64,000 nt of DNA, from sequence record PZ347775.1; one strand, given 5' to 3'. The notes under the pieces are model-generated. The model was given only the letters and a program-made list of their open reading frames with translations. It was not told the DNA's origin and did no database searches. Within the stretch, counting starts at the first letter, position 1, and each line of letters begins with the position of its first letter. A program made the translations under genes and the position numbers. Of this stretch, positions 1 to 57,793 are shown one piece after another. Source of the DNA: a phage.

Positions 1-329
1 TGGACAGTACGAGAACCAAAGTTTCCTTGACCATCTAACAAAGGAAAGTTATTATTCCAAGTATTAGCCATCAAAGCCCCCGCGTCTTGCGCAGAGTTTT
101 CACCATGATGATATCCAAGGTCAGCTACACCACCTGCAATAGAAGCGAGTTTGTGAAACTTATCTTTATTTCCTCGCGCCAAATCAAGAGCTCGAGCAAT
201 AACAAATCGTTGGACTGGCTTAAATCCATCAATCATATTTGGAATAGCACGATTTTCAACCGTGTACATAGCATAAGCCAATGCTTCATTATCAATGATA
301 CTTTTTAAATCGCGATTATTCAGTTGCAT
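1..329 (-). CDS. 52: DNA topoisomerase II medium subunit gp52, N-terminal part (gene continues beyond window start)
   Basis: Minus-strand ATG at 327-329; translation MQLNNRDLKSIIDNEALAYAMYTVENRAIPNMIDGFKPVQRF matches the GyrA-like N-terminus of T4 gp52. Confidence 0.85.
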   Translation of the reverse strand, partial: MQLNNRDLKSIIDNEALAYAMYTVENRAIPNMIDGFKPVQRFVIARALDLARGNKDKFHKLASIAGGVADLGYHHGENSAQDAGALMANTWNNNFPLLDGQGNFGSRTV

Positions 330-466
330 AAATTTACCATACTAGTGAATGTAGTGCCATAATAACATCAGAAATGAAAAGCACGACTTGAATTAATCCG
401 AACATTACTCCATAATATAGTGCTACCAATAAAGCAGCAAGGGCTACTGAGTAGCCCAAGATTTTC

Positions 467-625
467 TTAATCATTAGTAGATAACAACACAAATGTTAAA
501 TATGCACACATACCCTGAGCTAAAGCTTGCGAAAACACACTGCTGGCATCAATACAGATAGTTAAAACGCATGCTACTATCCAACAAATAAATGAAATAA
601 CTCCTAATAATTTTGCAATATTCAT
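467..625 (-). CDS. 52-aa hydrophobic membrane protein at the ac position
   Basis: ORF below the 60-aa track cutoff (MNIAKLLGVISFICWIVACVLTICID...); GAGGA SD 5 nt upstream; lies between stp and gene 52. Confidence 0.5.
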   Translation of the reverse strand: MNIAKLLGVISFICWIVACVLTICIDASSVFSQALAQGMCAYLTFVLLSTND

Positions 626-632
626 ATTTTCC

Positions 633-713
633 TCACTGGCGTCCGAAGACGCCTTTAGTTTTAAGATTGTTACGATAGAACTGCATCACGTGTTCGTTAT
701 GGAAATTACTCAT
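633..713 (-). CDS. stp: Stp peptide (26 aa), modulator of host PrrC anticodon nuclease / restriction
   Basis: Translation [26 protein letters not shown] matches T4 Stp as I recall it; start overlaps ndd stop (TAATG); absent from ORF track. Confidence 0.8.
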
Positions 714-1168
714 TAATATGCCTGCAAAACAAATTTAAAGTTATCAGCCAACATACGGTTCATTTCTTCAAGTGTTTGATACTCAGAATGATGATTACGA
801 GTAAACGCCAAAGCTAACTGACCCTTTCCAAATCCCGTCGTCAGAGGTTTCATCTTAGAAGCAGGCAAATAAAATACTGTATATGGAACATTGTTATTTG
901 CAATAGTACGCGCAAGCTGAGATCGACGCTGGCGAATATGACTTAGAACTGCACTGAATCCTTGCTTAGAACGCTGATTACCTACATAAAATCGTGCAGA
1001 TACACACGGATTATCAAATGGACCGCCAAATTTGCTCACTAAAAAGTAAAATCCAGGTTTAGATAAAATATCTTTATGTGGAACTCCCAAAAACCATTCA
1101 CCGTTCTTGATTGTACCAATAACGGTAGCGCCTGCATTGTTCAGATCAGTAACAGTCATATATTTCAT
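713..1168 (-). CDS. ndd: Ndd nucleoid disruption protein (151 aa)
   Basis: Starts at [25 protein letters not shown] with GAGGA SD; track ORF is extended upstream by a non-ATG start. Confidence 0.85.
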
Positions 1169-1228
1169 ATTAATTTCCTCTAAATTATTTTCTACTCCAA
1201 GGCCGCATGAATACACACGGCCATTAAA

Positions 1229-1444
1229 TTAATCATCGCAGTCGACGCTTAATTCCCAGAACTCTTCTACAGTATAAGTTTCAGTATCATTTTCAATACA
1301 GAAACGTTCATTGCTGTTATTTGCTAAAGTAGCGTTAACTGTCATTTTCTCGCTAGTGCTTTTAAGAGGCGAAATACGAATTAACTGATCACCATTATCT
1401 AAGCAAAAAATTTCACCAACTTTTACATCTTTAAAGATTTTCAT
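1229..1444 (-). CDS. hypothetical protein (ndd.1 position)
   Basis: 71-aa ORF with ATG and GAGGTGA SD; synteny. Confidence 0.5.
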   Translation of the reverse strand: MKIFKDVKVGEIFCLDNGDQLIRISPLKSTSEKMTVNATLANNSNERFCIENDTETYTVEEFWELSVDCDD

Positions 1445-1559
1445 AATTCACCTCAAGGAGTATAAAATCCAAATGCAGTTGTTGACCATCCCATCCAATA
1501 TGGGAAATTTGCACCAATGTAAAACATAAGAATATAAAACCAAATGCTTAGTAAATTCA

Positions 1560-1757
1560 TTATTTTACACCATTCCAAATTGTTTCAACCACAGATTTTA
1601 AGCCATTTTGGTGAATATCCATTCCGACAACTGCCATCAAATAGATTCCAACTACAACTGAACCTAAGGCAAAAATCAGCATGAAAATGAATAAAGCTGG
1701 AAAAATATTATCGAAAAACCATTCAATAAATGTAAAAGCACTGCGTTTACGCTTCAT
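1560..1757 (-). CDS. small membrane protein (65 aa)
   Basis: ATG MKRKRSAF preceded by GAGGAAA SD; strongly hydrophobic core; track start is an upstream TTG. Confidence 0.5.
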   Translation of the reverse strand: MKRKRSAFTFIEWFFDNIFPALFIFMLIFALGSVVVGIYLMAVVGMDIHQNGLKSVVETIWNGVK

Positions 1758-1764
1758 ATTTTCC

Positions 1765-1878
1765 TCACATAAATCCAAAGTAAGCGTTTAATACATCAAT
1801 CATTAAAACGATTGGGAATATACTCAAAACTACTAGTATTATAACTACATTCCATATAGCTTTAACAATATTTTTCAT
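1765..1878 (-). CDS. small membrane protein (37 aa)
   Basis: ATG at 1876-1878 (MKNIVKAIWNVVIILVVLSIF...) directly downstream of early promoter and GGAGGAACAG SD; track ORF extends through the promoter. Confidence 0.4.
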   Translation of the reverse strand: MKNIVKAIWNVVIILVVLSIFPIVLMIDVLNAYFGFM

Positions 1879-1906
1879 TTTCTGTTCCTCCGTAGTTGAT
1901 AAGATA

Positions 1907-1936
1907 ATAATACCACAGAGGAACAGTCTTGTAAAC
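1907..1936 (-). promoter_or_regulatory. T4-type early promoter (GTTTAC, 18 nt, TATTAT)
   Basis: Minus-strand -35 GTTTAC at 1931-1936 and -10 TATTAT at 1907-1912; flanked by inverted repeat ctgttcctc/gaggaacag. Confidence 0.5.
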
Positions 1937-2121
1937 AACTTTTTTAAAAATATTCGTAATAAATGTGAATGCCAATCACTACTGCCGAAACTTGCGCAAC
2001 CCACCACGCACACGCAATAAGTACAGAATTCAAAATTTTCATAATAACCTCATCACAAAAGTAAATGTTAAACAAATTAATGGAATACTAATTAACCAAA
2101 TAAAACACCACCATAATGAAC

Positions 2122-2385
2122 TCATAGTTCAATCTCAGCGATTTTCATTTCATTACTACTAATAGACGCTTTAAGACTATCTGAAAGAATTACATTCCAG
2201 TGGTCATTCATATGACCATTAACTAAGCGTGTAATTTCTTCGGGAGTTGAAAAATAAGGCGTATCAGACTCCCAGTGCGATAGTCCCAAGCGAGTATAAA
2301 TCATACCTTCATCATCGCTAGAATATTCAACTGACACAAACTCATCAGTTATTTTATGCTTAGCGTAATAAAATTTAAATTTCAT
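2122..2385 (-). CDS. hypothetical protein
   Basis: ORF with ATG MKFKFYYAK; synteny in ndd-denB interval. Confidence 0.45.
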   Translation of the reverse strand: MKFKFYYAKHKITDEFVSVEYSSDDEGMIYTRLGLSHWESDTPYFSTPEEITRLVNGHMNDHWNVILSDSLKASISSNEMKIAEIEL

Positions 2386-2390
2386 TTTAC

Positions 2391-2597
2391 TCAATAATCC
2401 GCTAAAAGATCGACGATTGCATCACGAAGACACTTATTCGCAATACGCTTAAGAGCAATTTCAGTTTCTGGAGCATTTTGAATAATCATTGAATTCAATT
2501 CAGCCTCAGCAAACTGAAGTTCTTTGACTAATTCAGCTTTATATTTTCCTTGCCCTTTCTTAGCTTTTGCTCGTTTTAATTCAGCTGTAGTAAACAT
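2391..2597 (-). CDS. hypothetical protein (68 aa)
   Basis: ATG at 2595-2597 preceded by conserved GGAGAATAAA cassette and early promoter; track ORF runs through the promoter. Confidence 0.5.
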   Translation of the reverse strand: MFTTAELKRAKAKKGQGKYKAELVKELQFAEAELNSMIIQNAPETEIALKRIANKCLRDAIVDLLADY

Positions 2598-2631
2598 TTT
2601 ATTCTCCAAATCCGCATCAGTTGATAGTTGT

Positions 2632-2661
2632 ATAGTACCACAGTCCTTGTGGTTTGTAAAC
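2632..2661 (-). promoter_or_regulatory. T4-type early promoter
   Basis: -35 GTTTAC (2656-2661), 18-nt spacer containing palindrome ccacaaggactgtgg, -10 TACTAT (2632-2637). Confidence 0.5.
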
Positions 2662-2677
2662 CGTTTTGTGAAAATTT

Positions 2678-3235
2678 TTAAATGGAAAGATACCATCCGT
2701 TGTAGTTGCTTTTTCTTACAACTTTACGAAGGTCTTCTCTATCACCGATGAACTTCGGAGTGTACTGGATGACACCTGGATGAATTTCTTTAGTGTTGAA
2801 TATAATTATACAGTCAGCGACTTGGTGATTCAGAATGGGCCCTAGATTTATTCCAGAACCGTATGGATACTCTCCGCTGCATCCGGTTGTTACCGAAATC
2901 CAACGTGAGTCAGTTTGGTGTGTCTTAACTTCTACACGAAGCCCGCAATATCTTGGATGCGCCAATACATCCCATGCGTATGTATACGGGTCATTAACAT
3001 CCTCTTGGCCTTTGTTAACATACCCGCTCAGCCAATCTGCTACAAAAAACTCTGCATACACAGCGATACGGCATCTTTCGATAACTTCTGCTTTATCCTG
3101 ATTAGGATTTTGTTTTAAAGAGTATCTTGCTGTATCAGCAATTTTGACCTTCATTTCACTAGTCAAATCATTGTTCGATAGGGTAAATGTTGGAATCTGA
3201 AATAGTCTCTGTAAACCCGGATTCGTTTTCTGCAT
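2678..3235 (-). CDS. denB: DenB, endonuclease IV (dC-specific ssDNA endonuclease)
   Basis: 185-aa ORF, T4 DenB length; synteny immediately upstream of rIIB region. Confidence 0.8.
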   Translation of the reverse strand: MQKTNPGLQRLFQIPTFTLSNNDLTSEMKVKIADTARYSLKQNPNQDKAEVIERCRIAVYAEFFVADWLSGYVNKGQEDVNDPYTYAWDVLAHPRYCGLRVEVKTHQTDSRWISVTTGCSGEYPYGSGINLGPILNHQVADCIIIFNTKEIHPGVIQYTPKFIGDREDLRKVVRKSNYNGWYLSI

Positions 3236-3300: not shown

Positions 3301-3318
3301 AAAGGGCCGAAGCCCTTT
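3301..3318 (-). terminator. UUCG-tetraloop hairpin / intrinsic terminator
   Basis: aaagggccgaagcccttt; on the minus-strand RNA reads GGGC-UUCG-GCCC followed by U-rich tract. Confidence 0.5.
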
Positions 3319-3516: not shown

Positions 3517-3530
3517 AATTTTCCTTAGTT

Positions 3531-3546
3531 AAGGGCCGAAGCCCTT
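3531..3546 (-). terminator. UUCG-tetraloop hairpin at rIIB 3-prime end
   Basis: aagggccgaagccctt overlapping rIIB stop codon. Confidence 0.5.
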
Positions 3547-4483
3547 ATTTAAATTGTTCAGTAACGTCTTCAACTACTTCGTATTGGCAGGTACGCATTT
3601 TAGCATCGTTGTAATCAATCGGAATTGATACTACATCGCGAGGATGTACTTTAACTTTTACAACTCGGCTGGTTGAACTGCCAAAGTGACGAATATAAGA
3701 TTTAGAACACACATGCAGACCACGAGAACAAGTTTGTGTATCATCGTCATTCACACGAGTACGTGGCATTTTAACTACTTTACCAGGACTGTTATCAAAA
3801 GTATTTGAATGACAGTCAAAGTAATTACTGCGAACTACTTTCCAAGCATAGAAGTAACCGTCTTCTGTAATTTCAATATCGTTTGCTACCAAGAAATCAA
3901 AGAGTCGAGATACCGCTTTTTGGCTCGGGTTTTCTAACAGATTTTCCAAGAACGGAAAATAAAATTCAAAGTTTTCGCCTTTTTCCATCGAATCGAGAAT
4001 ACGATCAACTAAACCAGACCGCAATTCAATATTTTGATAGAACAAGCTTCCACCTTCAATTCGAACATCACCGGAAATATATTTTTCAACAGCGCGACGA
4101 ACGTTAATTTTTTGCGCCGCTTCTTCCAATTTATCTGCAACAAGCAGATTAAGAATTTCCTGGAAGTTTGAATGAGTATTAGGAGTTGCGTTATAAGTTA
4201 CACCGTCAACAGTAATTGAAATGAATTTTTTAGATGCATTCCAAATAATGTCAGATTTAGCAACTGGAGCAATAGCTGCATCGCTCTTAACTGTAACTGT
4301 AATGTCACCGCTAATGGTAACTTTGGAGCGCTCAGCTTCTTCAGCATTTTTCAAAACACGACGGATTGTGTCCACCGATACACCTTGCCAATCAGCCAAT
4401 TCCTGTTGGGTGTAATTACCACTTGAATACAGTTTGACAATTTCAGCTTGTTCGTTTTTGGTCAGGCATTTAATATTGTACAT
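3545..4483 (-). CDS. rIIB: rIIB membrane-associated protein
   Basis: 312-aa ORF, MYNIKCLTKNEQAEIVKLYSSGNYTQQELADWQGVSVDTIRRVL; T4 rIIB length and sequence. Confidence 0.92.
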   Translation of the reverse strand: MYNIKCLTKNEQAEIVKLYSSGNYTQQELADWQGVSVDTIRRVLKNAEEAERSKVTISGDITVTVKSDAAIAPVAKSDIIWNASKKFISITVDGVTYNATPNTHSNFQEILNLLVADKLEEAAQKINVRRAVEKYISGDVRIEGGSLFYQNIELRSGLVDRILDSMEKGENFEFYFPFLENLLENPSQKAVSRLFDFLVANDIEITEDGYFYAWKVVRSNYFDCHSNTFDNSPGKVVKMPRTRVNDDDTQTCSRGLHVCSKSYIRHFGSSTSRVVKVKVHPRDVVSIPIDYNDAKMRTCQYEVVEDVTEQFK

Positions 4484-8810: not shown

Positions 8811-8829
8811 AAAGGCCCGAAGGCCTTTT
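8811..8829 (-). terminator. UUCG-tetraloop hairpin
   Basis: aaaggcccgaaggccttt just upstream of topoisomerase gene start region. Confidence 0.4.
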
Positions 8830-35040: not shown

Positions 35041-35071
35041 AATTTCCTCATTCAAGTTTAGTGTAAATTAT

Positions 35072-35089
35072 AAAGGGCCGAAGCCCTTT
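35072..35089 (-). terminator. UUCG-tetraloop hairpin
   Basis: aaagggccgaagcccttt between genes 45 and 44. Confidence 0.45.
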
Positions 35090-35090
35090 A

Positions 35091-35777
35091 TTAAAAGTCG
35101 TGGGTAGAATCAGCTTCAAGAGCTACTACATAATTCGCATGTTCACCTTCAAATTTAGCAGCGCCTTGTTTACCTTTTGCCCAGAGAAGAAGTTTATAAT
35201 TTCCTGGTTGCATTTTCATATTTGCCATATTGATAATGAAATTAAATGTATTTTCACCATCATAATCACCAAGAGTCAAAGAATATTTAACACGGGTCAA
35301 AGCAGAATCTTCTACTTTGTTAAAACCGTTAATTACAATTTTACCTTCTTTTACTGTGATAGCAATTGTATCAATCTGCAGACCGCGAGATACACGCAAC
35401 AGCTGTTGAAGGTCTTCAGCTTTAATTTCAGTAACAACAGATGCTACCGGGAATGGAATTGGTTTATTAGGAGCAACTACTGTACTCGGATCGGCTGCTG
35501 GCCAAAAAATTGTTGAACGAGCATCAGCAATTTTAATATTACCATCTTCTGACTGGGAAATTTCTGCATCATCATTAACTAGAGACAGAATACCGAGAAA
35601 ACCGTTCAAATCGTAAATCGCTACATCAAAATCAATAGTGTCAGAAATATTTGCTTCTGCATAAGTTGTACCATTAACCGCGCGAGTCATAATAAATTGA
35701 CCGGATTTAAGCATAATACCAGAGTTAATAGTAGCGAAATTTTTAAGCAGAGCAGTAGTATCTTTAGACAGTTTCAT
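35091..35777 (-). CDS. 45: gp45 sliding clamp
   Basis: 228-aa ORF MKLSKDTTALLKNFATINSGIMLKSGQFIMTRAVNGTTY; T4 gp45. Confidence 0.95.
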   Translation of the reverse strand: MKLSKDTTALLKNFATINSGIMLKSGQFIMTRAVNGTTYAEANISDTIDFDVAIYDLNGFLGILSLVNDDAEISQSEDGNIKIADARSTIFWPAADPSTVVAPNKPIPFPVASVVTEIKAEDLQQLLRVSRGLQIDTIAITVKEGKIVINGFNKVEDSALTRVKYSLTLGDYDGENTFNFIINMANMKMQPGNYKLLLWAKGKQGAAKFEGEHANYVVALEADSTHDF

Positions 35778-57772: not shown

Positions 57773-57790
57773 AGGGAGCCCGAAGGCTCC
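57773..57790 (-). terminator. UUCG-tetraloop hairpin / terminator after nucleotidyltransferase operon
   Basis: gggagcc-cgaa-ggctccc immediately 3-prime of the 57794 ORF. Confidence 0.5.
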
Positions 57791-57793
57791 CTA

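Follow-up and report, generated by a model that had tools for sequence, protein, structure and literature searches.

The ndd-stp-ac-52.1 block of a T4-like phage genome and Stp homologues in siphoviruses

The closest described system is that of phage T4, in which stp and ac are long-known, annotated genes (T4p267 and T4p266, respectively). Activation of PrrC, the latent tRNA-Lys anticodon nuclease, has T4 Stp as its necessary and sufficient factor (PMC3014915). It acts via the PrrC-associated type IC restriction enzyme EcoprrI and also inhibits EcoR124I, but not type IA enzymes, and the cut tRNA is repaired by T4 Pnk and RNA ligase 1 (PMC1484252 and PMC3014915). PMC3014915 reports that the Stp peptide alone activates the nuclease, that loss-of-function missense mutations cluster in residues 4–14, and that deleting the last 8 codons lowers activity only moderately; the N-terminal 18 residues are implicated in activity by the T4 literature.

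Ac is described as a non-essential, 51-aa predicted membrane protein whose loss makes T4 acriflavine resistant, and ac expression sensitizes E. coli (bioRxiv 10.1101/2025.06.30.662393). From phenotype and structure prediction, the same 2025 preprint proposes that Ac blocks AcrAB-TolC, a proposal that is not established and that a 2026 PNAS paper restates as an assumption (PMC13250531). The mRNAs of T4 are also where the UUCG tetraloop was first discovered, as recounted in PMC4371310.

We analyzed a stretch of phage DNA of 64,000 nucleotides (sequence record PZ347775.1), hereafter the window, for the genes lying upstream of gene 52. Positions 334..1168 on the minus strand are almost certainly an ordinary T4-like ndd-stp-ac-52.1 block, with stp and ac in their usual place and nothing new in either gene.

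Genome context and gene order of the ndd-52 block

The first 2.5 kb of the window matched 565 phage records, nearly all of them T4-like, with Escherichia phage vB_EcoM_G50 as the best match (97.6% identity), and the best match for the first 25 kb had 97.5% identity across 96% of the query. Judged from these matches over 2.5 kb and 25 kb, the window belongs to a Tequatrovirus (T4-like) genome that is identical to no record in the searched collection. No tRNA or tmRNA was detected in a scan for these genes, and a search of the whole window against Rfam at gathering thresholds gave no match.

ORFs were listed down to a length of 20 aa over positions 1..2500 of the window, and the minus strand was also read directly. 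Five tightly packed minus-strand frames were identified in this way, corresponding to ndd, stp, ac, 52.1, and gene 52. The first of these, ndd (713..1168), encodes the nucleoid disruption protein, with 151 aa counted from an ATG (MKYMTV...) and a mechanical ORF that extends to a GTG at 1216 on the same strand; its product matched Pfam PF06591 (Phage_T4_Ndd) with 302.7 bits as well as PHROG 1102, and the gene differs from T4 ndd at about 5% of nucleotides, as judged by eye in an alignment. It is followed on the same strand by stp (633..713, 26 aa), ac (467..625, 52 aa, translation MNIAKLLGVISFICWIVACVLTICIDASSVFSQALAQGMCAYLTFVLLSTND), 52.1 (334..474, 46 aa), and the 5' part of gene 52 (1..329), which encodes the medium subunit of topoisomerase II and runs off the left end of the window. 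Two plus-strand ORFs of 21–22 aa (493..561 and 613..678) were set aside as probable chance frames.

The junctions between these genes are tight throughout. The ndd stop codon TAA (715..713) and the stp start codon ATG (713..711) have base 713 in common (TAATG), and the stp stop codon TGA (635..633) overlaps the ac Shine-Dalgarno (SD) sequence GAGGA (634..630), which precedes the ac ATG (625..623) by 4 nt. Further, ac and 52.1 overlap by 8 nt, with the 52.1 ATG lying within the last ac codons (ATGATTAA), and the gene 52 ATG (329..327) is found 4 nt past the 52.1 stop, opening a frame (MQLNNRDLKS...) that matches gp52 of related loci. In the region of the stp stop and the ac SD, the sequence TGAGGAAAATATG was invariant across every hairpin-type relative. 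Because of the 1-nt ndd/stp overlap, the position of the stp stop within the ac SD, and the 8-nt ac/52.1 overlap, the ndd-stp-ac-52.1 cistrons, upstream of gene 52, are probably translationally coupled, as far as geometry only can indicate.

The RefSeq genome of T4 (NC_000866) carries annotations for 52, 52.1, ac, stp, and ndd with the same order, strand, and overlaps as in the window, and the synteny of T-even phages, in which ndd is followed by an ORF of about 26 codons and then by ac, 52.1, and 52, was identified here as well as in related loci. An earlier sequence-only reading of this DNA had described the TAATG overlap and the TGA lying inside the ac GAGGA exactly as found by direct reading, along with 2 micro-genes of under 60 aa that were hidden from its ORF track; at 26 and 52 aa, both do fall below the default 60-aa ORF threshold. 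That account holds for the 2 genes, to which we add the strand, left unstated there and found to be minus, and it missed a third, overlapping micro-gene, 52.1, as well as a C(UUCG)G hairpin inside stp.

More micro-genes were observed upstream of ndd, at 1229..2400 on the minus strand (the ndd.1-ndd.6 region), where ORFs of about 71, 65, 37, 32, and 87 aa, mostly hydrophobic, were delimited by coordinate correspondence with PP216085. This cluster is arranged as in PP216085, and its arrangement differs from that of T4. Its 37-aa peptide carries the label "naphthalene 1,2-dioxygenase" in several records, which looks like a propagated mis-annotation.

Across the Tevenvirinae, the gap between ndd and gene 52 is a variable micro-gene cassette, with Stp present or absent depending on genus or lineage. 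The ac slot of other Tevenvirinae holds divergent hydrophobic peptides of 43–55 aa, some of which share a W...T...S-V-x-S-Q-x-x-A-Q core with Ac, and some loci have extra membrane ORFs of 57–61 aa between ndd and stp.

The stp gene and the hairpin within it

The 26-aa ORF had been matched to T4 Stp in the sequence-only reading, which named a mismatch on direct alignment as its own test. Direct alignment with stp of T4 NC_000866 gave identity at 81/81 nt and 26/26 aa, and no mismatch was found; the relevance to host restriction and the anticodon nuclease that had been suggested for the gene agrees with the literature on T4 Stp (PMC1484252 and PMC3014915). Residues 1–26 aligned to positions 1–26 of the Pfam profile PF08133 (Nuclease_act), over its full length and above the gathering threshold (75.3 bits vs. 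a cut-off of 25, E = 2e-21), and the peptide also matched PHROG 6763, "activator of host PrrC lysyl-tRNA endonuclease" (E = 4.4e-21). A search of NCBIfam with Stp found nothing, and no match was obtained among the sequences of solved structures. T4 Stp (T4p267, NP_049878) likewise lies between ndd and ac, starts at a TAATG, and stops in the ac SD, so that the gene itself shows no difference, whereas the surrounding genome is that of a different Tequatrovirus.

The peptide is hydrophilic and basic (pI 10.3), and its N-proximal 18 residues, including residues 4–14, are intact relative to T4. Among the Straboviridae variants, 11 of the 15 variable sites in stp codons 1–18 were third positions. 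Further, the homologue in Raoultella phage RP180, which is identical to T4 Stp at 24 of 25 aa, has synonymous changes relative to the window gene in 9 of 25 codons and a conservative change (R to K) in 1 more, which argues that the peptide, and not the DNA, is what stays conserved in stp.

By its identity with the T4 peptide, the window Stp would inhibit type IC restriction and activate PrrC. It would be produced early in infection as a basic peptide of 26 residues that, as in T4, attaches to type IC restriction endonucleases (EcoprrI and EcoR124I) and blocks them. In hosts with a prr locus, such inhibition would free latent PrrC, leading to cleavage of tRNA-Lys in the anticodon loop, and phage polynucleotide kinase and RNA ligase 1 would then mend the tRNA. 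Stp would matter only in hosts carrying a type IC restriction system and/or prrC.

Codons 21–26 of stp (GVFGRQ) also form a C(UUCG)G hairpin (638..653, minus strand), GGCGUC-UUCG-GACGCC, with the same 6-bp G+C-rich stem, UUCG loop, and C:G closing pair as the C(UUCG)G hairpins of T4 mRNAs. A distance of 12 nt separates the hairpin from the ac start codon, and the ac SD is located 3 nt downstream of the hairpin. We considered whether T-even stp codons 21–26 are, in addition to encoding the end of Stp, also constrained at the RNA level, in which case the hairpin would influence the polycistronic mRNA, for example by hindering 3'-5' decay, by halting part of the transcription, or by keeping the ac SD exposed. 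This dual use, an addition to the reading of stp as the T4 gene and not a replacement for it, is possible but rather doubtful. The hairpin was present in both the minimum free energy (MFE) and the centroid fold, in favor of dual use, while the 131-nt stp region as a whole folded no better than shuffled sequences (z = -0.8), the local hairpin being its only notable element, and matched no Rfam family.

The comparison among variants is similarly divided. All hairpin-type Stp variants (T4-type, Mosigvirus-type, and 25-aa) retained the stem, with changes limited to G-U wobble (GGU or terminal U) or to the loop (UUUG), which suggests a constraint on the RNA; no fully compensatory double change was seen in the stem among these variants, and therefore they provide no covariation proof. 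Also in favor of dual use, removal of the last 8 codons reduces the activity of T4 Stp only moderately (PMC3014915), and a 28-aa Tequatrovirus variant (fHoEco02 and SHFML-26; 601–687 in the extracted loci), in which the N-terminal 18 residues are unchanged, has neither the hairpin nor the GVFGR tail. It ends instead in a wholly different C-terminus (…LKNFGILGSKNS), and even there the stop codon TGA and the ac SD overlap (TGAGGAG). However, the Kagunavirus-related siphovirus copies preserve ...KTKGVFGK in the protein with synonymous codons (GGA GUG UUU GGA) that abolish the hairpin, which argues that the Stp C-terminus is itself under selection. The stronger proposal that GVFGR is conserved only owing to the RNA hairpin was rejected, as it is weakened by these siphovirus copies, in which GVFG persists although its synonymous codons break the stem.

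The hairpin at 638..653 has no U tract behind it on the gene strand, where its tail is AGUGAGGAAAAU, and the pattern of an intrinsic terminator was not found there. A terminator scan reported 638..653 on the plus strand only, where TTTAGTTTTA comes after the hairpin. Two hairpins of the locus, 441..457 and 638..653, are terminator-like on this plus (antisense) strand, with T-rich tails, and 6 terminator-like sites were counted in positions 1..3000, compared with 1.4 ± 1.3 in shuffled sequences. A scan of the window for the T4 late-promoter motif TATAAATA gave 3 sites, a lower count than in shuffled sequences; none of them is close to the locus, and the scan provided no evidence for a late plus-strand transcript ending at either hairpin. 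An antisense role of these terminator-like hairpins is unsupported.

The hairpin class as a whole was enriched in the window, with 33 occurrences of CTTCGG (11.6 ± 3.4 in shuffles) and 23 TTCG stem-loops (9.7 ± 2.9 in shuffles). Twelve minus-strand C(UUCG)G hairpins, including the one in stp, had stems of at least 6 bp. Of the other 11, 7 are outside all listed ORFs and begin at most 4 nt from the stop codon of an ORF that is 40 aa or longer, in contrast to the stp hairpin, which sits in known coding sequence. Other minus-strand C(UUCG)G sites were located, for example, at 3301..3318, 3530..3547, 8811..8828, 35070..35091, and 57773..57792.

The ac and 52.1 genes

The product of ac has all 51 residues of T4 Ac along with 1 inserted Thr (..LLSTND vs. 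..LLSND) near the C-terminus, which the alignment with T4 traces to an in-frame insertion of 3 nt. T4 Ac (T4p266, NP_049877) occupies the same slot between stp and 52.1, with an identical SD, and likewise overlaps 52.1 by 8 nt. The sequence-only reading had called this frame a hydrophobic, ac-like ORF with a GAGGA SD; the 51 shared residues, the synteny, and a match to PHROG 2501 (E = 3.7e-25) now identify it as the ortholog of T4 ac. No Pfam model was found for Ac, and NCBIfam returned only a sub-threshold chance match (Bac51, 14.8 bits vs. a cut-off of 150). Given the complete nucleotide identity of stp, its PF08133 score, and an Ac that differs from that of T4 only by the one Thr, the match of the 2 genes to T4 is far beyond chance.

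Ac has a GRAVY of 1.42, and its 15-residue Kyte-Doolittle window reaches 2.8 over residues ~6–25, with a second, weaker hydrophobic segment in the same profile; the peptide is thus predicted to insert in the membrane. By orthology with T4, ac of the window would be an acridine-sensitivity determinant, encoding a small membrane peptide whose presence would render infection acridine sensitive, which in the model of 1 preprint would come about through a block of the AcrAB-TolC efflux pump. For ac, as for stp, the case that the gene is functional is made by its identity to the T4 gene and by its substitution pattern, and the biochemical activities are those expected from the T4 literature.

Among the relatives sampled, 11 distinct DNA forms of ac encode only 4 proteins, of which the 52-aa Ac is the commonest. 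It is encoded by 7 of the 8 distinct forms of 159 nt (7 of all 11 sampled forms), and 1 of the encoding records is annotated "ac." The 159-nt forms vary at 9 sites, 8 of which are third positions. With a length of 52 aa against 51 aa in T4, the ORF might be taken for an ac that has decayed or been functionally altered by the 3-nt insertion, which places the extra Thr before the C-terminal ND. We consider this very improbable, as the insertion keeps the frame, the identical 52-aa protein is maintained by so many distinct DNA forms, including that of the annotated record, and nearly all differences between the 159-nt forms are synonymous. The preferred reading remains that of an intact ac orthologous to that of T4.

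The next gene, 52.1, encodes a hydrophobic peptide of 46 aa (GRAVY 1.74), which aligned with residues 1–46 on positions 1–46 of the Pfam profile DUF7396 (PF24129; 79.8 bits vs. a cut-off of 27) and matched PHROG 3595, while a search of NCBIfam with gp52.1 found nothing. T4 gp52.1 (T4p265) has the same length and position and differs by a single substitution (S-V-A in the window, S-L-A in T4). Of the small ORFs in the ndd-52 gap, this gene is the best conserved, and the majority of the examined Tevenvirinae loci carry it.

Annotation of stp and its homologues in siphoviruses

Thirty T4-like records were sampled at even spacing from those with a Stp match; the gene is named in only 6 of them, and a CDS is missing at its position in at least 20. 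PP216085 and KX130862 are also without an stp CDS, and in MK327937, the hairpin is annotated as "terminator, -10.30" with no stp CDS. The ndd-ac gap resembles an ordinary intercistronic spacer because of its C(UUCG)G hairpin, which belongs to a class often located at ORF stops in the window. Prodigal has a minimum of 90 nt, and stp, with 81 nt, falls under it. Small size and a terminator-like hairpin together account for the omission of stp from at least two-thirds of the 30 sampled records.

The view implicit in most deposited T4-like annotations, that the 79-nt ndd-ac stretch is a non-coding spacer with a stabilizer or terminator hairpin and a 26-codon ORF arising by chance, can draw on the enrichment of the hairpin class in the window, the 7 long-stem hairpins just past ORF stops, the terminator label in MK327937, and the missing CDS in the sampled records, but it has next to no chance of being right and is effectively refuted by the identity of the sequence to T4 stp, a gene defined by both genetics and biochemistry (PMC3014915). 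The third-position bias of stp variation, the occurrence of the same peptide in siphoviruses whose DNA and flanks differ and which lack the hairpin, and the missing gene-strand U tract also stand against it.

Predicted-protein sets mostly lack proteins of 26 aa, and a tblastn search of phage genomes identified homologues of Stp, of 24–27 aa and largely unannotated, in phage records of ~40–52 kb. In roughly 200 phage records, the match extended over 80% or more of a Tunavirus-type Stp query, siphovirus identity being confirmed only for SA30RD, Pocis76, RP180, YX3973, and IMG/VR contigs of ~43–48 kb. The checked Stp-bearing siphoviruses (n = 5) belong to Tunavirus, to Tempevirinae, and to a Kagunavirus-related group, with 1 unclassified. 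The homologues were located at 1501–1581 of the locus in Tunavirus SA30RD, at 1501–1581 of the locus in Klebsiella phage YX3973 (an unclassified siphovirus), and from 12484 in RP180, a siphovirus of ~45 kb whose matches include Kagunavirus records. Two homologues that were tested pass the PF08133 cut-off over residues 1–18 only. In the inspected records, the siphovirus copies of Stp are unannotated, with the exception of that in Pocis76.

In Hafnia phage Pocis76 (Drexlerviridae), the Stp-like ORF (1720–1875) is annotated as "putative anticodon nuclease activator," and it overlaps by 1 nt the start of the polynucleotide kinase/phosphatase gene (1875–2633), so that an anticodon-nuclease trigger and a tRNA-repair enzyme are adjacent. 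In T4, the tRNA repair pair (Pnk and Rnl1), which lets a phage afford Stp, is encoded far from stp. On a 4-kb IMG/VR contig (from 226), the Stp frame is fused to the downstream gene in a 74-aa ORF, apparently because, in comparison with the RP180-type arrangement, the stop was lost or the frame shifted. A search of a literature collection for Stp or PrrC together with these siphovirus taxa found no paper.

A joint reading of these observations would have the 3' third of T-even stp dual-coded, for the Stp C-terminus and for an RNA hairpin, and Stp itself as a horizontally spread, largely unannotated family that is not special to T-even phages but present in several siphovirus lineages, whose copies conserve the N-terminal 18 residues implicated in T4 Stp activity. 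We put this forward tentatively, at somewhat less than an even chance. In its dual-coding half, the hairpin may act on the ndd-stp-ac-52.1-52 mRNA through stability, partial termination, or exposure of the ac ribosome-binding site.

By themselves, stp and ac of the window mean little, as they are textbook T4 genes in their textbook position. The omission of stp from records means that a known gene of counter-defense and defense triggering is being overlooked. With homologues of Stp present and mostly unannotated in many siphoviruses, surveys of anti-restriction genes and of abortive-infection triggers will undercount Stp unless six-frame translations are searched. If Stp has indeed spread in this way, the arms race of Stp, PrrC, and Pnk would operate well beyond T4.
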